This document shows positions 45 to 35,825 of a DNA stretch of 39,122 nt, in pieces. Below the pieces are notes generated by a model. That model was not told where the DNA came from. It worked only from the letters and a program-made list of their open reading frames with translations, and searched no databases. The stretch's first letter is position 1; each line of letters begins with the position of its first letter. A program made the translations under genes and the position numbers. Where the stretch lies: IMG/VR virus record IMGVR_UViG_3300025600_000035, positions 1 to 39,122 of that record. One strand, 5' to 3'. The DNA comes from a virus. Taxonomy: Duplodnaviria; Caudoviricetes.

Positions 45-806
45 ATGGTAGAACGAGACTTTAAAGGTGTTTGGATACCTAAAGAAATATGGTGCAACGA
101 AAAAATGTCACTACAGGAAAAAGTATTCTTTATTGAAATTGACAGCCTAGATAATGAAGAAGGTTGCTTTGCTGGTAATGATCATTTTGCAAAATTCTTC
201 TTTCTATCAAAGAAAAGAGTATCAGTAATAATCAATGAACTTGTTAAAAAAGGATACCTGACAAGTGAGATTATTTACAAAGGAAAAGAGATAGATAAAA
301 GGATATTGAGGGTATCCCCGAAAGCAAGGATACCCCACCAACAAAGCAAGGATACCCCTACCCCCGTAAACGAGGAAGATAGTAATACAGTATCTATTAA
401 TAATACATCTAATATATATACAGCACTTTTTGAAAAATTCTTTTCTCTATATCCCGAAGGTGGACAAACATTAAAACCGCAAACATTTAAAAACTTTCAA
501 GCATTGATTAAAAAAAAGGTTAATCCTGAAGATTTAATGCAAGCTGCTAGAAATTACGCTACTGATTGTATAGTTTCTGAAACGGTGGAGCCTTACTTTA
601 AAAAGAGTAGCAATTTTGTTGGCAGGGAAGCTACATATCTTAATTATACTGATAGGGAATGGATTCCAGTAATTCCAAAACAACAAGCTAAACGAGAAAA
701 AACCATTGCCGAAAAGGCAAAGGAGTTGGCAGAAGATTATGCAATTCGCCACGGCATCACGACTAATAGCCCTAACCAAGGGTATATATCCCTCATCAAA
801 GGCTAA
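45..806 (+). CDS. Phage replication initiator / replisome organizer (N-terminal winged HTH, lambda O-like)
   Basis: N-terminus RDFKGVWIPKEIW...GCFAGNDHFAKFF..SKKRVSVII is typical of phage initiators; GGAGG RBS; internal iterons; followed by a loader-like gene. Confidence 0.8.
   Translation: MVERDFKGVWIPKEIWCNEKMSLQEKVFFIEIDSLDNEEGCFAGNDHFAKFFFLSKKRVSVIINELVKKGYLTSEIIYKGKEIDKRILRVSPKARIPHQQSKDTPTPVNEEDSNTVSINNTSNIYTALFEKFFSLYPEGGQTLKPQTFKNFQALIKKKVNPEDLMQAARNYATDCIVSETVEPYFKKSSNFVGREATYLNYTDREWIPVIPKQQAKREKTIAEKAKELAEDYAIRHGITTNSPNQGYISLIKG
310..420 (+). repeat. Putative lytic origin inside the initiator gene (iterons plus AT-rich tract)
   Basis: AAAGCAAGGATACCCC at 321-336 and 343-358 (22-bp period), inverted GGGTATCC at 310-317, then AT-rich 381-420. 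Confidence 0.7.
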
Positions 807-1323
807 CGAGAAAGATACACTTGATATATGGATGGGATTATTCGGCAGGAAAGACGATGGACTGATGGAAACGGCATTAAGGCTATGTTGGACTACCTGC
901 CAATTCTTCCCTACTCCTGCCGATATAACCACAGCAATTAAAGAATTACAGTTTGACGAGAGTACGAAACCTAGTTTACAGATTGCACATGATCGCAAAT
1001 GGGACGAGCCGATGGCATTTAAAGCCTTTGAGTTAGTTGGTCGCCAAAAGGATTGCAAGAAATACCTAGACAATGTTGACGTTACCGAACTAGCCGAGTA
1101 TGCCAGGTCAATCTTCCCGGAGATAACCGACGAATTAGTATTAAAGAATTACCCGGAGTTGTCAAGCGGTCAACAGAGTTTGCATACTTGCCTGGCGTGT
1201 ACGGTGGACAAGTCCCGATGTATAACGCAGGGTTACCGAATAAAACACGTACTGCGCCCCGATGGGTATGTCAGCAATAATATGTCGAGGTGTCAAAAGA
1301 ACATGGAGCAGGTGAAACGATGA
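739..1323 (+). CDS. Replicative helicase loader/inhibitor (SPP1 G39P-like) with C-terminal Cys-containing domain
   Basis: LDIWMGLF...ALRLCWTTCQFFPTPADI motif; directly after the initiator; start re-called to ATG 739 (track start 706). Confidence 0.6.
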   Translation: MQFATASRLIALTKGIYPSSKANEKDTLDIWMGLFGRKDDGLMETALRLCWTTCQFFPTPADITTAIKELQFDESTKPSLQIAHDRKWDEPMAFKAFELVGRQKDCKKYLDNVDVTELAEYARSIFPEITDELVLKNYPELSSGQQSLHTCLACTVDKSRCITQGYRIKHVLRPDGYVSNNMSRCQKNMEQVKR

Positions 1324-5529: not shown

Positions 5530-5870
5530 AAAAGTAAGTTAATATTTTAATCGGATAATCATTTACTTGACACAAGCCGCCGCGAGCAGACGTGAGAGTA
5601 TACCAACATGAGGTATAACGCCCGGCGGATCCCTTCGGGAATTTAAAGACGGTCGGAGATCGTTGCGATAACGGTAACGATTTTAATATAGCGAGTGAGC
5701 AGACTTACTTGCATGGGTAGGGATTACATAGATAAAGGTGATGTAGTCGAATATGTAGCGTGGGCAGGGGGCTAACATATTAAAATTAAACTCATACAAC
5801 AGGCAATCAACACCTACTGCACTAGCTTGCGGTAGTTCATGGTTGGTTACTTGTTTTATGGGTTTTATTT
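5530..5870 (+). ncRNA. Structured late-operon leader (candidate ncRNA)
   Basis: No ORF; consecutive stems such as CCGCCG/CGGCGG (5577-5628), ATCGTTGCG/CGGTAACGAT, GCGAGTGAG/CTTACTTGC, GATTACAT/ATGTAGTC, AATATGT/ACATATT and a long irregular hairpin at ~5787-5865. Confidence 0.5.
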
Positions 5871-5885
5871 ATACGAGGTGATAGA

Positions 5886-6164
5886 TTGCAAAAGATAGAT
5901 AAGATACGACTAAAGGGCAAGGCGTTAGCTAAACTTAACGAACTAATCTACGAACGCGATAACAGGCATTGCGTAATTTGCGAAACATACGTAGCTGACG
6001 GGGTAAAGTTCCACCACGTAATTTTAAAATCACACGGCGGGCAGGACGTAAAAGAAAACGGCGTGATACTTTGCCTAAATTGTCATAACGAAGTGCATTG
6101 CGGGAGTGAAACGCAGGATTACAGGGAACGGTGCGAGGAATATTTGAGGGGGATTTACGGATGA
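5886..6164 (+). CDS. HNH endonuclease (packaging-module type)
   Basis: RDNRHCVIC...HHVILKSHGG....N.VILCLNCHNEVH. Confidence 0.9.
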   Translation: MQKIDKIRLKGKALAKLNELIYERDNRHCVICETYVADGVKFHHVILKSHGGQDVKENGVILCLNCHNEVHCGSETQDYRERCEEYLRGIYG

Positions 6165-6337
6165 GGATAAAACGTCTTAGAAATTTACTTAAAGCGTCTT
6201 TTCTATGCAGTTATAAATGGTTAAAGGTTGGCGATGGCCATTTACTTGGTAAGAATAACCGTGACGATATGATAAGTGTTTATAATGGTGACGGAATTAA
6301 AAGATGGTTTGAAAGCGAATACGTTGATTATGAATGA
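6161..6337 (+). CDS. Hypothetical protein
   Basis: GAGGGG RBS and ATGA overlap with HNH stop. Confidence 0.5.
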   Translation: MRIKRLRNLLKASFLCSYKWLKVGDGHLLGKNNRDDMISVYNGDGIKRWFESEYVDYE

Positions 6338-6704
6338 GTTAATACCCAAAAACCTCGAACCGTCGCAACTATATAAACTTGGCACGGACTTAGCCAACGA
6401 GGTTGCAACGCTAGGTAAGACGGTGGCAGGGTACGAGGTAGAGGTAACGAGTAAGAGTAAGACGTACAAGTTAGAACTCGCCAAGGCAAAGATACTTAAC
6501 ATGGATAAGAAATATACAGCTACAATAATAAATGCGCTTGCAGAGGTATCTACGGAGGTTGTAACGGCAGGGAACTATCTGATGCAGGCTGAAGCTAATC
6601 TGCTGATAGGTAAGGCCGAGTTAGAGGGACGGGATAAGCAATTGATGATGGTGAAGAAGATAATGGACTTGAAGGTGCAGGAATTGCGGACATTCCGCGG
6701 TTAA
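6330..6704 (+). CDS. Hypothetical coiled-coil protein
   Basis: Helical composition; start re-called to ATG 6330. Confidence 0.6.
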   Translation: MNELIPKNLEPSQLYKLGTDLANEVATLGKTVAGYEVEVTSKSKTYKLELAKAKILNMDKKYTATIINALAEVSTEVVTAGNYLMQAEANLLIGKAELEGRDKQLMMVKKIMDLKVQELRTFRG

Positions 6705-7067
6705 CAAGATTGGTATATCCTTGCGATAACGGCAGGAGAGGGAAAAGATGTGTTGAGTAGGTGGGGACTTGGCACGAAAGTGTAAATAATATAGGGTAGT
6801 GAATAGTATTAGACAACCTATAAAGGGGTGACGAATGGACGTTACTATTATAATTATGAACCCCGGTAACTTCATGGTGGGAATTAGTTTTACACCACAT
6901 GAACAATTAGAAATATTCTTAGGGCTATTCGTAATTAGCATTACATTCTAAAGTAGGCGATAACATGATTGAGGTTATAAAAGAGATTGTGGTTATTATT
7001 TCGGTTATTGGTTTGTTTTCACTGATAATTTACGGAATATATAAAAAGGGAACTAGGGGGTGAGATA

Positions 7068-7502
7068 ATGGCTGTCGGGCTAACAGATAAGCAAAAGAAA
7101 TTCGTCGAAGAATATTTAATAGATTTAAATGCTTCGGCAGCTGCAAAGCGGGCAGGGTACTCTGGAAGCAATCATGATAAAATTGGTTCTCAATTGCTAG
7201 GTAAAACTAGGATTAGGGAAGCAATCAGTGAAGCTAGGGCCGAACAATCAACTAGGACTAAAATAACGGCAGACTACGTGTTATCTAGGTTGCAAGAGGT
7301 CGCAGAACGTTGTATGCAAGCGGAAGCAGTAACGGACAGAGAAGGTAAAGAAACAGGCGAATATAGATTTGATTCGGGTGGCGCTAATAAGTCACTTGAA
7401 CTACTAGGCAAACATCTTAAATTATTTACTGATAAGGTGGAAGCAACAGGAGCAAACGGAGATTCATTAGTTATTAAGGTTAGATTGGTTGATGATGATT
7501 AA
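7068..7502 (+). CDS. terS: Terminase small subunit
   Basis: LTDKQKKFVEEYLIDLNASAAAKRAGYS...LELLGKHLKLFTDKVE. Confidence 0.95.
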   Translation: MAVGLTDKQKKFVEEYLIDLNASAAAKRAGYSGSNHDKIGSQLLGKTRIREAISEARAEQSTRTKITADYVLSRLQEVAERCMQAEAVTDREGKETGEYRFDSGGANKSLELLGKHLKLFTDKVEATGANGDSLVIKVRLVDDD

Positions 7503-8809
7503 TGAACATAGAGTTTCAACTTAGTAAAAAGCTATTCAATCCTATATACTTACCGTTATTAACAGACGAAACATACTTACAAATATTATTCGGCGGATCT
7601 TCGTCTGGCAAGTCTAAGTTCCTAGCGCAACGGTGTATTAAGGATATACTAGACGGTGGGCATAATTACTTAGTCTCTCGTAACGTACAAGTAACATTAA
7701 AAAAGTCCGTATTCAATGAGATATGCAAGGTTATTGCCGAATGGAAAGCATCAAAACTGTTTTCTATTAATAAGACAGATTTAATTATCACCTGTACTAA
7801 CGGCTATCAAATTATGTTTGTTGGACTTGACGATACTGAAAAAATAAAATCCATTACACCTGCAAAGGGAGTAATTACTGATATATGGGTAGAAGAAGCT
7901 ACAGAGTGCGAATATAACGCCGTAAAACAGCTTAGAAAGCGTTTACGTGGATTGTCGAAGGTAAAGAAACGCATCATATTATCATTCAATCCTATTCTTA
8001 AAACTCACTGGATTTATACTGAATACTTCGGCAACTGGATTGATGGTGAACAAGAGTATCGCGAAGATAGAATGGTAATATTAAAAACTACCTATAAAGA
8101 TAATGTATTTTTAACGATAGACGATATAAAGGAACTAGAGGAAGAAACAGATGTATATTGGTACGAAGTATACACGCTAGGTAATTGGGGTGTACTTGGT
8201 GGTGTTATCTTTAAAAATTGGGTAAGCCGAGACTTAACAGCCGAGCGCAAAGCATTTGCAACGTTTAACAATGGCCTTGATTTTGGATTCGCTAGTGATC
8301 CTGCTGCAATGGCTAGATTACACTATGACCGCAAGCGCAGCCGTTTATACATATTAGATGAACTATACGAACGAGGATTAACAAATGATGATCTAGCCAA
8401 GGAGTTAAAACCTATCATTGGCCGTGAGCCAGTACGATGTGATTCGGCCGAGCCTAAAAGCATCATGGAACTAGCGCAAAGAGGTATTACAACGGTCGAA
8501 GCGATCAAGGGTAAGGATAGTGTCAACTTTGGTATTCAGTGGCTACAACAGCAAGAAATCATTATTGATATACGCTGTCAAAATGCTAAGAATGAATTTA
8601 GTAGCTATAAGTGGATGGAGAATAAGCAAGGAGATCAATTACCAAAACCTGTTGACCGTAACAATCATTTAATAGATGCGATTCGCTATGCTATGGAGAT
8701 TGAGATGAATTACTGGTTAGAAGCGAAGAAGGAAAAAGACAAGCCGAAAGATTACGGCGGTTACGACCGAGCGATTGAGCAGGATAACGGATCTTGGATG
8801 GCAGGATAA
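7502..8809 (+). CDS. terL: Terminase large subunit (PBSX/SPP1-like, probably headful packaging)
   Basis: Walker A GGSSSGKS, Walker B IWVEEATE, SFNP, nuclease GLDFGF..DP, DSAEP, NHLIDAIRYA. Confidence 0.97.
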   Translation: MNIEFQLSKKLFNPIYLPLLTDETYLQILFGGSSSGKSKFLAQRCIKDILDGGHNYLVSRNVQVTLKKSVFNEICKVIAEWKASKLFSINKTDLIITCTNGYQIMFVGLDDTEKIKSITPAKGVITDIWVEEATECEYNAVKQLRKRLRGLSKVKKRIILSFNPILKTHWIYTEYFGNWIDGEQEYREDRMVILKTTYKDNVFLTIDDIKELEEETDVYWYEVYTLGNWGVLGGVIFKNWVSRDLTAERKAFATFNNGLDFGFASDPAAMARLHYDRKRSRLYILDELYERGLTNDDLAKELKPIIGREPVRCDSAEPKSIMELAQRGITTVEAIKGKDSVNFGIQWLQQQEIIIDIRCQNAKNEFSSYKWMENKQGDQLPKPVDRNNHLIDAIRYAMEIEMNYWLEAKKEKDKPKDYGGYDRAIEQDNGSWMAG

Positions 8810-26847: not shown

Positions 26848-26876
26848 TTGACAAATAAAGGTTATTATGAGATAAT
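26848..26876 (+). promoter_or_regulatory. sigmaA promoter of ncRNA cassette 1
   Basis: TTGACA-17-GATAAT with extended TG. Confidence 0.75.
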
Positions 26877-26885
26877 CAATCATAC

Positions 26886-27057
26886 AATAGTTGTGGCGGA
26901 ATAAGTAGACGCTAAATTGCTTTTAATTGCGGTTGCAAACGTAGTTAATGTAAGTCTAATCTAGACTGTAGCTCAGTTGGTAGAGCGGGGTGCAAAACAC
27001 CTACGTCGGAGGTTCGATTCCTCTCAGTTATGGTAGGTGAAAATCCTATCCGCTATT
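26886..27057 (+). ncRNA. tRNA-like shell RNA enclosing a hairpin and a nested tRNA-like element
   Basis: AATAG(T)/(G)CTATT closing stem; D-arm-like TGGCGGAATAAGTAGACGC; T-arm-like GTAGG-TGAAAAT-CCTAT. Confidence 0.6.
26962..27031 (+). tRNA. Degenerate tRNA-like element (pseudo-tRNA, no assignable anticodon)
   Basis: TAGCTCAGTTGGTAGAGC D-arm and GGAGGTTCGATTCCTCT T-arm are canonical; anticodon arm GGGTG-CAAAA-CACCT has a 5-nt loop; acceptor only 5 bp; no CCA. Confidence 0.65.
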
Positions 27058-27147
27058 AGTACAATTACATTAGGTTAAGCGTTTGTAGTACGCTTCAAAG
27101 TAGGTACTGGCTCCGTTAATCGGGGCGACCTGCAACTATTAGAAAAT

Positions 27148-27185
27148 ACCGTCCTTCTCGTAATGAGTTGGGCGGCTTTTTTCTG
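27148..27185 (+). terminator. Terminator of ncRNA cassette 1
   Basis: CCGTCC..CTC-gtaat-GAG..GGGCGG followed by a T run. Confidence 0.7.
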
Positions 27186-27198
27186 TTTATAATCGTTA

Positions 27199-27227
27199 TT
27201 GACAAATAATACCTATCGTTATATAAT
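27199..27227 (+). promoter_or_regulatory. Consensus sigmaA promoter of ncRNA cassette 2
   Basis: TTGACA-17-TATAAT. Confidence 0.85.
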
Positions 27228-27231
27228 TAAG

Positions 27232-27410
27232 CTACAGTTAAGGGAGGATTGCGCACAGGTTCACGTGGATTGACACACACCTGCTTTGCCTTGACACCTA
27301 GCTAGCGGGGGACGGTCTAGCACTGATTGTAGTAGGTGAAAGCGTACCTATCAACGGTACGTGACTACACATAAAAATCCACTCGTCGTAATGATGGGTG
27401 GATTTTTTAT
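27232..27410 (+). ncRNA. Stand-alone structured sRNA (~175 nt) with terminator
   Basis: CTACAGTTA/TGATTGTAG, CAGGT/ACCTG, GCTAG/CTAGC and CGTACC/GGTACG stems; terminator AAAAATCCACTCGTC/GATGGGTGGATTTTT; no ORF. Confidence 0.6.
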
Positions 27411-27543: not shown

Positions 27544-27572
27544 TTGCTAATCGAACAAATGTATGGTAAAAT
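27544..27572 (+). promoter_or_regulatory. Promoter of the long non-coding transcript
   Basis: TTGCTA-17-TAAAAT with extended TG; spacer contains an imperfect LexA-box-like CGAACAAATGTATG. Confidence 0.6.
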
Positions 27573-27581
27573 ATTTTCAAT

Positions 27582-27698
27582 AAGAAACAAAAAATCCCCA
27601 CAAGCATTACGCTTACAGGGATTCATTGCGAATTACCCACTGTTGAAAGCAGTTTGTAATTCTTCCTACTGAATGTCTTCACCAGTCAGCAAGAATCT
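27582..27698 (-). ncRNA. Countertranscribed antisense RNA (~110 nt, three hairpins)
   Basis: Minus-strand promoter TTGCGT(27734-27729)-18-TG.TACAAT(27710-27705); stems CTGA/TCAG, GAATTAC..ACTG/CAGT..GTAATTC, and AATCCC/GGGATT ending in a minus-strand U tract. Confidence 0.65.
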
Positions 27699-27771
27699 GA
27701 TTTGATTGTATCATATTATGATATAATTACGCAAGGTTTTTTCACAGGAAAATTTTGGGAAGAAATTTAGT

Positions 27772-27802
27772 AGGACATAGCATAACGCTAGTGTCCTTTT
27801 TT
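27772..27802 (+). terminator. Conditional terminator (attenuator)
   Basis: AGGACA-TAGC-ataac-GCTA-g-TGTCCT-TTTTT; its 5' arm can instead pair with 27664-27674. Confidence 0.7.
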
Positions 27803-28250
27803 ATATGGGCAATAGTGTCGGATCGACGGTAACACAACGTCAAGGCTTCCGAATACAGCCGTAAATAATGAACCCTGCGTTAGCAAGTAGGACAAACTGA
27901 TACCTGCCAAGAGGGGTATTCTTTTCTTTGAGGAGAGAGCAACTACTGCGGTAGATAAGTACGCTAAGTACGCCACAAACAGTTAAAATGTTCTGTAGCA
28001 TCCATGTGGGATTGTTTGTGTTTCAACATAGGTTTAATCACCTTTTGTCATGGCAGAAAAGAATTGGGCAATTGATTAGTTTTAATCAATGGATACCTAT
28101 GTCTGAAAAGACGTGACGACATACATAGTGCCAGAGGGCGTGGTGATGGCTATACTGTGTTAAAACTACAGATACTACTATATGATACCAAGTCATACTG
28201 TTGTATGTCATACTTGCCTGCTTCCCTACCGGGATAAAGGCAAGTTATAC
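27803..28250 (+). ncRNA. Large multi-domain structured RNA downstream of the attenuator (candidate replication primer / plasmid origin)
   Basis: No + strand ORF of 60 aa or more; nested long-range stems 27974-27984/28010-28020, 28021-28033/28095-28108, 28118-28129/28197-28209, 28212-28219/28238-28245. Confidence 0.55.
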
Positions 28251-28357
28251 AAACTTAGAAAACACAGCCTCCTGTTGTAATTTAAAACATAGAACGTGTC
28301 AAGGTTAAACTTGTTATTGTTAGCATATACAAGTTGTTGAGTAAATATACTAAAATA

Positions 28358-28418
28358 AAGTGTCGGACAGATATTGCATAATCTCTAATACATGATATAA
28401 TATAAGTGTCAGACAGAT
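28358..28418 (+). promoter_or_regulatory. Promoter bracketed by 15-bp direct-repeat operators
   Basis: AAGTGTCGGACAGAT (28358-28372) and AAGTGTCAGACAGAT (28404-28418) flank TTGCAT-16-TG.TATAAT. Confidence 0.7.
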
Positions 28419-28434: not shown

Positions 28435-29616
28435 TTGAACATAGGTATAATAGATGCTGATTTAATTGACAAAGGGACTAATTTCCCTAATCTTGCATTA
28501 ATGAAAATATCATCCTATCATAAAAGCATAGGCGATACGGTAGAATTGTTGCTTGATTACACAAACCTCTTATTTGATAAAATATATCTAGCAAAAGTAT
28601 TTGACTTTACAAAAATACCTATCAACTTAGACGACTACCCGCATATTGAATACAACGGTACAGGGTTCTTTTATGACAAAGCCCCCAACTTGCCCGATCA
28701 CATCGAACATTGTATGCCTGACTACAAACTATACTCAATAGACGACGAACACTACAAATACTATTCAATCGGGTATACAACACGCGGTTGTTTTCGTAAA
28801 TGTTCATTCTGTGTTAATAAAAAATATGATAAATCCGAAGTGCATAGTCCTATTAATGAATTTTTAGATAAAAATAGAAAGTATATATGTTGCCTAGATG
28901 ATAATGTTTTAGCTTGCCAGTATTGGTGTAAAATCATTACCGAATTAATAGAAACAAATAAACCGTTTCAATTTAAGCAAGGTATAGATATTAAATTAAT
29001 TACAAAAGAGAAAGCACAACTATTGGCGAGTGCAAAATACAAAGGTGATTATATATTTGCGTTTGACCACGTAGAAGATTGTTTGCTGATTGATAAAAAA
29101 CTTGGCATTTGGCGTGATAATTGTAAAAAAAGCACTAAATTATATGTACTATGTGCATTTGATTCACAAGATGCAAAAGACGTTGAAGGAGTTTTCAAGA
29201 GGATTAAAATACTGTTTAAAAACAAGTGCTTACCGTACATTATGAGGTATAAAGATTATGACGGTTCACCAATGCGAGGAATGTATATAACACTAGCGAG
29301 ATGGTGCAATCAGCCTACATTTGTAAGGAAAATGACATTCAGAGAATTTTGTATAAAAGATAACCAATCGGCTTATAGGTATATGACCGAATTTGAAACA
29401 AATTACCCGTCAATAGCAAAAGAATATTTTGATGTGAGGTATTCAGACAGGTTCAAGCCAAAAGTAATTAAAGCTAAATATAAAATAGAAACCACAAAAA
29501 TATCATGCAGAGTTGAAACTGATAAATTAAACAGGTTAAAAACAGAATACGGGAATTTGACTAATACTGAATTGATTGATAGATTAATTAATGAAAAACT
29601 GTCAGAAACTATATAA
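28435..29616 (+). CDS. Radical SAM protein with C-terminal RHH-like extension
   Basis: TRGCFRKCSFC (CxxxCxxC), FPNLALMKISSYHK, LDDN, F.QG.D; tail TKISCRVETDKLNRLK...NTELIDRLINEKL. Confidence 0.85.
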   Translation: MNIGIIDADLIDKGTNFPNLALMKISSYHKSIGDTVELLLDYTNLLFDKIYLAKVFDFTKIPINLDDYPHIEYNGTGFFYDKAPNLPDHIEHCMPDYKLYSIDDEHYKYYSIGYTTRGCFRKCSFCVNKKYDKSEVHSPINEFLDKNRKYICCLDDNVLACQYWCKIITELIETNKPFQFKQGIDIKLITKEKAQLLASAKYKGDYIFAFDHVEDCLLIDKKLGIWRDNCKKSTKLYVLCAFDSQDAKDVEGVFKRIKILFKNKCLPYIMRYKDYDGSPMRGMYITLARWCNQPTFVRKMTFREFCIKDNQSAYRYMTEFETNYPSIAKEYFDVRYSDRFKPKVIKAKYKIETTKISCRVETDKLNRLKTEYGNLTNTELIDRLINEKLSETI

Positions 29617-31684: not shown

Positions 31685-31717
31685 TGATATTAATAACAAT
31701 ACTAATATTAATATTAA
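31685..31717. repeat. parS-like hexamer array 1 (parA promoter/RBS region)
   Basis: TGATAT TAATAA CAATAC TAATAT TAATAT. Confidence 0.55.
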
Positions 31718-31729
31718 GGAGTGAAACCA

Positions 31730-32491
31730 ATGATCATAACGGTTGCCACGCAAAAAGGCGGTTGCGCTAAAACTACTACGGCGGGAATGATCTGCCACAT
31801 ATTAAGCAAAAAATACAAAGTATTAGCTATTGATTTAGACAGTCAGGGATCGTTAACAGACTTAATGACAGGGAGGGATATTTACGATTTCATGGGGGTG
31901 ACGGTGTTTGAAGCGATTAAAAACCAATCCCCGACAGGCTGCATACATAAGGTGTCAAAGTTTATTGATATTATGACCGCTGACGATCACCTGGCGTTAT
32001 TACCCCGATGGTTATATGGAGATTACAAAGGTAATAAATCATTAGCCCTAGCGAACGTTATTAACCAAGTAAAAGATAATTACGATTATATTATTATTGA
32101 CACACCCCCGGCACTTGGAGATCACACAATAAACGCCATATCTGTCAGTAATGCAGTATTAATAATGTTCGGCGTGGGTCGGCAGTCTTATTTGGCTATT
32201 GATAGATTTTTAGAAACTGTTGGACATTGCAAAAAATTAGTAAATCCTAAAATTGAAGTATTGGGAATACTTACAACCATGCTAGAGCCTCGCAGGAGCG
32301 ACCACAGAGCTTTATTAGAAATGGCGAGGGAAACATATGGAGATTTAGTTTTCAAGTCTACAATTGAACGCAGGGCATCGACAGGACGTATTGACATGAC
32401 GGGCTTTAATAAGAATAGTGAACTATCTTCAGCAACGTCCCAATATAAGATATTTGTAAGGGAGATGTTGGAGCGTGGCAATAGACTTTAA
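31730..32491 (+). CDS. parA: ParA/Soj-family partition ATPase (type Ib, no N-terminal HTH)
   Basis: Deviant Walker A QKGGCAKTT, IDLDSQGS, YDYIIIDTPP; start re-called to ATG 31730 from RBS spacing. Confidence 0.93.
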   Translation: MIITVATQKGGCAKTTTAGMICHILSKKYKVLAIDLDSQGSLTDLMTGRDIYDFMGVTVFEAIKNQSPTGCIHKVSKFIDIMTADDHLALLPRWLYGDYKGNKSLALANVINQVKDNYDYIIIDTPPALGDHTINAISVSNAVLIMFGVGRQSYLAIDRFLETVGHCKKLVNPKIEVLGILTTMLEPRRSDHRALLEMARETYGDLVFKSTIERRASTGRIDMTGFNKNSELSSATSQYKIFVREMLERGNRL

Positions 32492-32744
32492 AGCACGAAT
32501 GAAAAGGCCGGTGCAATTAGATATAATTGATCCTGTTATTAATATTAATACTAATGTTAATATTAATACTAATATTATGCAACAACCCCCTAAATATACT
32601 GAAGTTCATAAGGCAACAATGGTTTATATAGAGAATGAATTGTCGAGCGAGTTAGATGTGATCTGCAAGGGCAAAAAGGGGATGAAAAGCAAGATTGTTA
32701 ATGAAGCGTTGAATGATTTTTTTAAGAAAGTCAATAAAAGATAA
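32475..32744 (+). CDS. Centromere-binding protein (ParG/omega-like C-terminal RHH)
   Basis: Overlaps parA; flexible N-terminus; KATMVYIENELSSELD...KSKIVNEALNDFF. Confidence 0.8.
   Translation: MAIDFKARMKRPVQLDIIDPVININTNVNINTNIMQQPPKYTEVHKATMVYIENELSSELDVICKGKKGMKSKIVNEALNDFFKKVNKR
32534..32575. repeat. parS-like hexamer array 2 inside the centromere-binding gene
   Basis: TGTTAT TAATAT TAATAC TAATGT TAATAT TAATAC TAATAT. Confidence 0.6.
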
Positions 32745-33997: not shown

Positions 33998-34726
33998 ATG
34001 TCTGAATTAACAATCGTAAAAGATGGACAGGCAGTAACGACTAGCCGACAAGTAGCTGAGAGTTTCGGAAAGTTACATAAAGATGTATTGGTAAGTATTA
34101 GAAGTATTATCGACTCAGCGGGAAATTCCGCTCAGTGGTTATTTGAATCAACCTACAAAGATTCCACGGGAAGAACATTACCCGAATACGTAATGAACCG
34201 TGACGGCTTTACTCTCCTAGCAATGGGCTTTACTGGCTCTGATGCAATGCAATGGAAGATTAAATACATACAAGCGTTCAACGACATGGAAAAACAACTT
34301 CATAATAAACAACTATCTAAACTTGAAATACTCGAACTGGCCATTGCGTCTGAAAAGAAAGTTATTGAACTTCAAGCGGTGATTACGGAACAAAAACCAA
34401 AAATAGTCTTTGCTGAATCGGTAGAGTGCAGTAAAACATCAATCCTGATTAAAGGACTGTCGGTGATACTTAGCCAGAACGGCATCGACATTGGCCAGAA
34501 CAGACTGTTTACCTATCTAAGAGACGAAGGGTATTTATGCAAGCAACAAGGTAGGAATTACAACAAGCCTACTCAACGGTCAATGGAGCTTAAAATAATG
34601 CAAGAGAAAACGACAACGATAAATAAGCCTGACAGAGAGCCTATTATCACTAATACGCCGCTTGTCACCGGAAAGGGAATATTGTACTTTGTTAATAAGT
34701 TTTTGAACAGTCAGGCGGTGAGTTGA
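33998..34726 (+). CDS. Rha-family regulator fused to a KilA-C/ANT antirepressor domain
   Basis: TTSRQVAESFGK.HKDVL, MNRDGFTLLAMGFTG..A..WK.KYI.AFN; KPKIVFA, IGQNRLF, PTQRSME, VTGKG..YFVNKFL. Confidence 0.92.
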   Translation: MSELTIVKDGQAVTTSRQVAESFGKLHKDVLVSIRSIIDSAGNSAQWLFESTYKDSTGRTLPEYVMNRDGFTLLAMGFTGSDAMQWKIKYIQAFNDMEKQLHNKQLSKLEILELAIASEKKVIELQAVITEQKPKIVFAESVECSKTSILIKGLSVILSQNGIDIGQNRLFTYLRDEGYLCKQQGRNYNKPTQRSMELKIMQEKTTTINKPDREPIITNTPLVTGKGILYFVNKFLNSQAVS

Positions 34727-34947
34727 TGGCTTACTTAACGCATGAAGAAAATGAAAGGCGTTTTAGGTATCACAGAGAAGGAAGAATAGACGTTGAAATT
34801 GCTAGTTTGTGCGGTGTTACAACATCCGCGATACAAGAGTGGAGAATAAATAGAAGTTTGAAAGCTAATAAGAAGAAGTCACATTCCAAAAGAATTTATG
34901 CAAATGATTTTAACCGAGAGATTGTAGATAGATTTTATGAAACATAA
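34726..34947 (+). CDS. Small HTH protein
   Basis: DVEIASLCGVTTSAIQEWRINRSLKAN. Confidence 0.65.
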   Translation: MAYLTHEENERRFRYHREGRIDVEIASLCGVTTSAIQEWRINRSLKANKKKSHSKRIYANDFNREIVDRFYET

Positions 34948-35181
34948 AGAGGTGAGCAAATGAACGACTTATCACCAGCAAAAGGGCTAGTCAACGGCCT
35001 AGCCCTAGCGACGGGCTGATAGCGTACGCAATATACCGGGGAATGTGAGGGGGTGACGTAATGAAGCTACACCGTAAACCGCCGCAAACTACAGCAGACT
35101 ATCTGCAAAGCCTGGCCGCCGGAATGGCTTTTATATTCCTGCTAATATGTTTCGCGTAAATAAAAATAGGAGTTGTAAAAA

Positions 35182-35562
35182 ATGGAGTTGTTTAGATTTA
35201 GATTTAACATTGGTGATGTAGTTTATTACGTTTTTAATGAACTTCACTCAACATATAAGCCGTGTGAAACTTGTAGCGGTAAAAGAAAAATAACTATAAA
35301 TAACGAGGAATTTAATTGCCCGAAATGTAGAGGCGAAGGAAGAGTTTACGACACGCATAAAAGATTTTATTTTATTAAAAAACTAACTATTGGTAACCAA
35401 CGAGTAAGCATAACAAAAAGAAAAATTGATGAAGAATATATGTGTTGTGAGAGTGGAGTGGGTACTGGAACAATATATTCCGTTGACAACTTATTTAATA
35501 GTGATGATGAAGCTAAAACTTATAAAAAACAACAAGAAGATATTAACGAGGACATAAAATAA
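35182..35562 (+). CDS. DnaJ-type zinc-finger protein
   Basis: CETCSGK...CPKCRGEG; KFNIGD-like N-terminus. Confidence 0.65.
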   Translation: MELFRFRFNIGDVVYYVFNELHSTYKPCETCSGKRKITINNEEFNCPKCRGEGRVYDTHKRFYFIKKLTIGNQRVSITKRKIDEEYMCCESGVGTGTIYSVDNLFNSDDEAKTYKKQQEDINEDIK

Positions 35563-35606
35563 AAAGCCCCGACATCGTAAGTGCCGGAGCCGAAAGGAAA
35601 ATAGTA

Positions 35607-35825
35607 ATGACTAACTATAACATTGATTTCGACGAATTTCAAGCCCGTCATAACGAGAATTTCCAACCACGACGGAGATCAAGCGTAACGGCGATACAAA
35701 CTTTAACCTTTTGCCCCGAATGTAATAAGCGGATCACTACTGGCGACGAACTGTATATCTGCGAGTTAGAAGTTTTTTGTTCGGAAGAATGCGGAATAAA
35801 ATTTGAGACGGAGAGTGAAGCGTAA
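35607..35825 (+). CDS. Small zinc-finger protein
   Basis: CPEC...FCSEEC. Confidence 0.6.
   Translation: MTNYNIDFDEFQARHNENFQPRRRSSVTAIQTLTFCPECNKRITTGDELYICELEVFCSEECGIKFETESEA

Follow-up and report, generated by a model that had tools for sequence, protein, structure and literature searches.

The window, a stretch of 39,122 nt, is a whole phage record (CheckV 100%) whose first 17 bases recur as its last 17. The phage occurs in peat metagenomes, and other contigs matching the window were identical or near-identical fragments, nothing more divergent. Among its gene products are ParA (31721-32491) with an Arc-like partner, a lytic-type initiator (45-806), a portal like that of P22, a capsid and the proteins of a lysis cassette. 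Capsid relatives at ~53% identity fall in clusters that include members named Dialister and Veillonella, which makes a Negativicute the probable host. No plasmid Rep family or integrase was found among the 63 window ORFs scanned, and six-frame searches detected neither a tyrosine integrase in the window and two phages with homologous elements, L123 and L186 (0/3), nor a serine resolvase domain in these three phages and a capsid relative, G004 (0/4). The first-pass annotation had described a prophage with ParA but no integrase or plasmid Rep; the searches agree, although the lytic initiator and its rare neighbour (706-1323) are present, the latter together with the element in all three carriers.

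The element and its possible partners comprise the following features.

27544-27572 (+): predicted sense promoter, TTGCTA-17-TAAAAT with an extended -10 (TG); 9/12 in the promoter scan, equivalent sites in L123 and L186
27579-27802 (+): leader, the predicted attenuated transcript of ~225 nt, from folds; 71% identical to L123 over 243 columns
27585-27698 (-): predicted antisense RNA of ~114 nt with three hairpins, from its fold; the last hairpin (27624-27592) is its own terminator, found by the scan
27630-27662 (+): target hairpin, from the structures of all three leaders, with two compensatory pair changes relative to L123
27664-27674 (+): anti-terminator 5' arm within the antisense target, from the fold; core invariant in 3/3 leaders
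27705-27734 (-): predicted antisense promoter, TTGCGT-18-TG-TACAAT, extended -10, read in the sequence at 8/12; same position in both homologues
27765-27775 (+): anti-terminator 3' arm overlapping the terminator 5' arm, from the fold
27772-27802 (+): conditional intrinsic terminator with U tract, from the fold; present in both homologues
27803-28250 (+): ORF-free folded read-through region (the tail), a candidate initiator RNA, from its fold; no SD-led ORF, no Rfam match
28268-28302 (+): 36-nt 3' motif common to the window and L186
28374-28401 (+): separate promoter of the downstream gene, with a 15-nt direct repeat on each side (28358-28372, 28404-28418); equivalent promoters in both homologues
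31685-31717 (no strand): AT-rich 6-bp periodic repeat before parA, recurring at 32534-32578; candidate parS
31721-32491 (+): partition ATPase ParA, whose clade occurs on Bacillota plasmids, from family and plasmid matches
32475-32744 (+): small Arc/RHH-like partner of ParA (phrog_582, E 6e-4), with homologues beside parA in the two homologue genomes (G001, G002) and in G004
45-1323 (+): lytic-type initiator (45-806) and neighbour (706-1323), possible trans-acting partners, from family search and co-occurrence

Two small RNA units lie before the sense promoter. One (26848-27185, +) runs from promoter to terminator and contains a tRNA-like gene (26965-27028; 35.9 bits, the only Rfam hit) that has a shortened anticodon loop, was missed by ARAGORN and is apparently nested between tRNA-like 5' (~26890-26913) and 3' (~27032-27055) segments. 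The other (27199-27410, +) has a perfect 12/12 promoter and a terminator, no Rfam match, and a body that folds no better than shuffles (z -0.11). Terminator hairpins at ~27160 (+), 27388 (+) and 27605 (-) have the same 7-nt loop-region sequence, which suggests duplication or a common ligand. Cumulative GC skew has no inflection at the element.

Predicted antisense RNA and leader switch

Promoter-like sites are not above chance by number alone in this region (13 against 9.9 +/- 2.8 in shuffles), and the promoter calls therefore rest on conservation. The sense promoter proposed in the first-pass annotation is listed by the scan and is found in all three leader carriers. The opposing promoter proposed at 27734-27705 can be read in the sequence, under the scan threshold (the scan gave 27745-27718 instead), and is conserved: an extended -10 antisense promoter stands at the corresponding offset in each homologue, scoring 10/12 and 8/12, and in 3/3 phages it lies 39-42 nt past the start of the anti-terminator arm.

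An antisense RNA convergent with the leader is predicted in each of the three phages, with three, three and two hairpins. For the window, the three-hairpin RNA of ~110 nt that had been proposed is recovered with a fold z-score of -6.39 (0/200 shuffles as stable), and the antisense RNAs of the homologues reach -6.50 and -6.49. Evaluated together, the three antisense RNAs span z -6.5 to -6.8. In the antisense consensus of the window and L123, 19 of 29 pairs are unchanged, 4 have changes on one side, 6 on both sides and 0 are broken; the consensus energy is -25.0 on the antisense strand versus -9.75 on the sense strand. Coming from two sequences only, the pair changes and the strand bias are no more than suggestive in favouring an antisense RNA structure.

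The target hairpin presents a 7-nt loop (27643-27649), and both homologues have a 7-nt target loop with a start of the same type, which we take to be a YUNR-type motif in the three leaders. The terminator that had been placed at 27772-27802 was missed by the scan, its stem being interrupted, but it forms with a probability of 0.999 once the anti-terminator arm is masked. Folded to the U tract, the window leader reaches -66.2 kcal/mol with the terminator and -65.9 kcal/mol with the anti-terminator, and the two states lie 0.3, 0.7 and 0.9 kcal/mol apart across the three leaders (window first, here and below). The computed terminator probability is 0.30, 0.17 and 0.35 in the free leaders and 0.999, 0.999 and 0.96 when the antisense target is forced to be unpaired; values as low as those of the free leaders occur in 1, 4 and 6 of 150 shuffled leaders. 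The proposed 11-bp alternative helix (27664-27674 with 27765-27775) is present in the fold of the full transcript, is matched by 2/150 shuffled window leaders, and destabilises the terminator to an extent reached by 1/150. The length of the anti-terminator in L123 is unremarkable by itself (18/150 shuffles match), and the anti-terminator core is invariant across the three leaders and so offers no covariation. In these fold computations, masking of the antisense target flips the leader to the terminator, and the two mutually exclusive computed folds are conserved in three phages.

Putative read-through tail and flanking genes

Beyond the terminator, the region 27810-28260 folds better than chance (z -3.95; -3.04 for the opposite strand). 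Folding is uneven: the tile 27851-28050 has a z-score of -0.4 and the tile 28001-28200 one of -4.0, against -0.9 for its opposite strand. The four nested stems drawn in the first-pass annotation (27974/28020, 28021/28108, 28118/28209 and 28212/28245) all exist as complementarities of 8-11 bp, but only 28212/28245 is part of the minimum-energy fold, which favours a long arm at ~28003-28183. The 3' hairpin 28212-28245 has no U tract, and the tail is without a terminator of its own.

The claim that no rep ORF follows the attenuator held: no ORF with a Shine-Dalgarno match was found on either strand of the window tail, none of the three tails has an SD-led ORF, and the next gene, which has a promoter of its own, encodes a radical SAM protein. 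A hidden small ORF or type I toxin in the tail was considered and ruled out, there being no SD-led small ORF. Rfam gave no match in the tail at the gathering score or at E up to 5 (weaker sub-threshold matches were taken as chance), nor any match of the element as a whole to a family, including the models of Inc18/pT181 and ColE1 RNAs, ROOL, GOLLD and ARRPOF.

The tails of L123 and L186 are 400-430 nt long and ORF-free (400-500 nt after each terminator across the three phages); the tail fold is at z -4.70 in L123 and is weak in L186 (z -2.20, 3/100 shuffles). The three tails do not align (window/L123 score 24 versus 25 in shuffles; L123/L186 24.5 versus 24.9), so a covariation test of the tail is not possible. 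The 3' motif at 28268-28302 has a local alignment score of 45 between the window and L186 versus 24.7 +/- 3.2 in shuffles (0/200), is not significant in L123, and is a candidate origin or loading site. In L123 the promoter lies between two perfect DnaA boxes; the window has one relaxed-consensus box (27738) and L186 has none.

The next gene downstream has its own promoter in 3/3 phages. In the window the radical SAM protein (28435-29616, +; phrog_9298 over residues 1-310) carries an additional C-terminal tail, RHH-like on visual inspection, and small RHH-like genes stand at its place in the homologues. Further on, the best plasmid matches of the window ParA are from Paenibacillus, Brevibacillus and Alicyclobacillus plasmids (48-53%), and its closest relatives, on Logan/ENA contigs, are 69-75% identical. 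At the other end of the window, the ORF 706-1323 occurs in 3/3 element carriers and in 0/16 other records, which means that the system may need a phage protein; in all three carriers it lies directly behind the lytic initiator, far from the element. Eight homologues of it were found, and a protein atlas gave no fold lead. Its position is consistent with a helicase loader of a lytic module shared via a common host; alternatively, it may be a needed partner of the element.

Element carriers and the slot before parA

Scanning viral contigs with a ParA profile yielded 47 loci, one of which, L123, carries a leader at 71% identity, and a pattern built from the window and L123 gave 26 viral loci with two homologues, L186 being new. 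The leader lies 1.75 kb upstream of parA in L123, a 57-kb phage, and 0.9 kb upstream of a ParA 30% identical to that of the window in L186, a 36-kb record; in the window, parA is 3.4 kb past the tail. All three share the leader, both promoters, the switch and an ORF-free tail upstream of parA. In L123, the gene directly upstream of the switch (5559-7886) encodes a phrog_5156 protein of 775 aa that contains a P-loop-like motif; a pilin-like gene precedes it. The homologue genomes are 93% and 86% complete and have no terminal repeat, and the sequence still missing could encode a Rep or an integrase.

These three were the only members found. A scan of viral contigs with the first pattern (118 loci) and a pattern scan of GTDB (41 loci) gave no homologue; a pattern for the 3' motif gave 6 loci, with the L186 record as the sole homologue; two further pattern scans (2 and 11 loci) each gave the same two homologues; and a metagenome scan (96 loci) gave one copy of the window and one of L123. 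Searches with the leader model were empty for 59 loci (parA, capsid and plasmid), for 5 genomes and, as a profile search, for four Selenomonas plasmids. At the DNA level, 301 genomes from a single phylum produced chance-level matches of 21-42 nt only, and viral contigs scanned with one ParA protein yielded nothing. With blastn, the element had no match in a phage collection and one chance-level 42-nt match among plasmids (PLSDB), where the homologues and the leader had none.

The position of the element is the same in 3/3 phages, between the lysis genes and parA. From 80 capsid loci 21 were chosen, reduced to 18 and then to 14 that are at least 90% complete. Among these 14 capsid relatives, 12 have a tyrosine integrase, one (G004) has ParA and one has neither. 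In one relative (G006) the integrase comes after the lysis cassette, and in G004, whose capsid is 71% identical, a 308-aa initiator-like gene occupies the slot directly before parA, besides a lytic initiator and a helicase-like gene elsewhere in that genome. An initiator-like gene also precedes parA in a Paenibacillus phage-plasmid and a Brevibacillus plasmid with ParA of the same clade. The leader was found in 0/16 other records searched. As judged from gene content and order, an integrase, an initiator with ParA, and the RNA switch with ParA are alternatives at one position. It is mainly because of this exchange that we read the element as a plasmid replicon; the attenuator logic and replicon role proposed in the first-pass annotation thus gain comparative support, which is partial, from the slot and from three phages sharing the switch near parA.

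A candidate RNA-based replicon

We consider it about 65% likely that 27544-28302 is an RNA-based, Rep-less replicon serving the plasmid state of a temperate phage-plasmid, in which an antisense-gated, non-coding initiator transcript would stay with the DNA template close to the 3' motif. In the default state, 27664-27674 of the nascent leader would be paired with 27765-27775, and the polymerase would pass the terminator into the folded tail. At higher copy number, binding of the 114-nt antisense RNA to the leader loops would mask the 5' arm, allowing the terminator to form and stopping production of tail RNA. The tail RNA would most likely be kept on the template near 28268-28302 as an R-loop, which would open or prime the origin for host replication proteins, and ParA with its RHH partner would then segregate the plasmid copies. 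The transcript might also be extended as a Pol I- and RNase H-dependent primer of the ColE1 RNA II kind, as the first-pass annotation proposed, but the tails cannot be aligned, and oripLS20, the nearest Bacillota precedent, is reported to replicate without Pol I (PMC9743546).

The element could also be a plasmid origin in which read-through only activates a DNA origin needing a protein in trans (the 45-806 initiator, the ORF 706-1323 product or host DnaA), with the tail hairpins possibly acting as single-stranded DNA signals. The conservation of a short 3' motif in an otherwise unconserved tail fits such an origin, as do the restriction of ORF 706-1323, with its few homologues, to element carriers and the perfect DnaA boxes of L123; in Inc18 plasmids, transcription through the origin is described as acting together with a Rep protein (PMC4981023, in the text available). 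We nevertheless think it unlikely, given that G004 needs a dedicated slot initiator although a lytic one is present, that ORF 706-1323 is distant from the element and may co-occur with it through a host gene pool that the carriers share, and that the tile 28001-28200 folds on the sense strand only.

Initiation would play no part if the switch governed read-through into the genes from the RHH/radical SAM position to parA, or if it were an RNA immunity device of the type of P4 CI. The downstream genes are all co-oriented with the terminator-less tail, and an RHH-type gene or parA comes next in the homologues; yet every downstream gene is served by a strong promoter of its own in 3/3 phages, the ORF-free spacer of 400-600 nt would be left unexplained, and the phage would have no identified route to plasmid replication or integration, all of which makes this account improbable. 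Least probable of all, in our judgement, is a tail that is a large phage ncRNA of unrelated function, such as a ROOL/GOLLD-like scaffold, a defence RNA or an antisense-controlled RNA toxin. The element does come after a tRNA-like gene and another small RNA unit in the window, and ROOL and GOLLD are reported from prophage tRNA arrays (PMC12990946, in the text available), but the absence of Rfam matches and SD-led small ORFs in the tail speaks against it; moreover, parA is the neighbour common to all three elements, adjacent small-RNA units occur only in the window, and the poor conservation of the tail is unlike that of ornate ncRNAs.

The pT181 plasmids are controlled by antisense-driven attenuation of the same layout as in Inc18, and ColE1 RNA I alters the folding of the primer and does not cause termination. 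Rfam models and PLSDB gave no ColE1 RNA I/RNA II match. As far as the available text of PMC4981023 goes, the candidate replicon resembles pIP501/Inc18 in its convergent promoters, a leader-complementary antisense RNA of 80-120 nt, exclusive terminator and anti-terminator folds and a U-turn-type target loop; in Inc18 and pT181, however, the read-through product is rep mRNA, whereas no ORF follows the attenuator here. With ColE1 and the MRB marine plasmids it shares an origin without a Rep gene and a small antisense RNA over the 5' end of a 450-700 nt transcript, and the mechanism of MRB RNA II is stated to be uncharacterised (PMC3035462, text available in part). The ARRPOF RNA of the Fusobacterium plasmid pKH9 is likewise a structured RNA in a gene-free kilobase, which is sufficient for rep-less replication of pKH9; it differs in being shorter and sequence-conserved, and the element has no Rfam match to it (PMC5737381, from partial text).

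In mycobacteriophages, replication of the prophage as a plasmid depends on a non-coding RNA next to parABS (PMC7157519, from the accessible text), and the publication of such origins makes an RNA-based, Rep-less prophage origin less unprecedented. Like the non-RepA cluster A mycobacteriophages RedRock, Alma and LadyBird described there, the window phage is an integrase-less temperate phage with a partition cassette and an adjacent non-coding region (transcribed in theirs), and sister phages carry a Rep gene or integrase instead. Those origins belong to another phylum and have no described antisense attenuator, the word 'terminator' occurring 0 times in the accessible text of that paper. A search of titles and abstract starts in the open-licence literature found no published attenuator with a non-coding replication output, nor any literature on pHT1030 or Selenomonas replicon RNAs.

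The class E theta origin oripLS20 of Bacillus subtilis pLS20 is also ~1 kb long, without a rep gene and near a partition module (PMC8557374, PMC9743546), and is reported to be Pol I-independent (PMC9743546; both sources in part). Using coordinates from the available text of PMC8557374, we examined it as 34500-35750 of locus L430, with family members L443-L446. Our computations predict a conserved antisense promoter, an antisense RNA with a terminator, a strong sense terminator, and a folded 460-nt tail (z -6.12) with 27 compensatory pairs among 213 in 5 family members, which suggests that this long-unexplained replicon is under RNA control. Unlike the window, oripLS20 has a terminator probability of about 1.0 masked or unmasked, so no equivalent switch is computed, and it has DnaA boxes where the window has a single relaxed one. 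Homology between the two was rejected, with no sequence similarity in either direction; a short likeness of the oripLS20 3' end to the 28268-28302 motif was noted post hoc and is not counted as evidence. More tentatively, at somewhat less than even odds, we suggest a protein-free origin: attenuation of the pT181/Inc18 style would ration a folded RNA, and this RNA would by itself open the DNA and load the host replisome. Such an origin would form the Negativicutes branch of a widespread class of RNA-initiated Bacillota replicons, divergent in sequence, to which oripLS20 would also belong.

ColE1, MRB plasmids and some mycobacteriophage prophages are established cases of RNA-initiated replication, and attenuation control is established only with rep mRNA as its product; a non-coding initiator output would join both principles. 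The element is directly testable because it is under 1 kb and has clear predicted mutations. It suggests a concrete RNA model for oripLS20, whose initiation is described as little known, would account for the escape of Rep-less phage-plasmids from replicon typing, and could yield a compact vector origin for Negativicutes.
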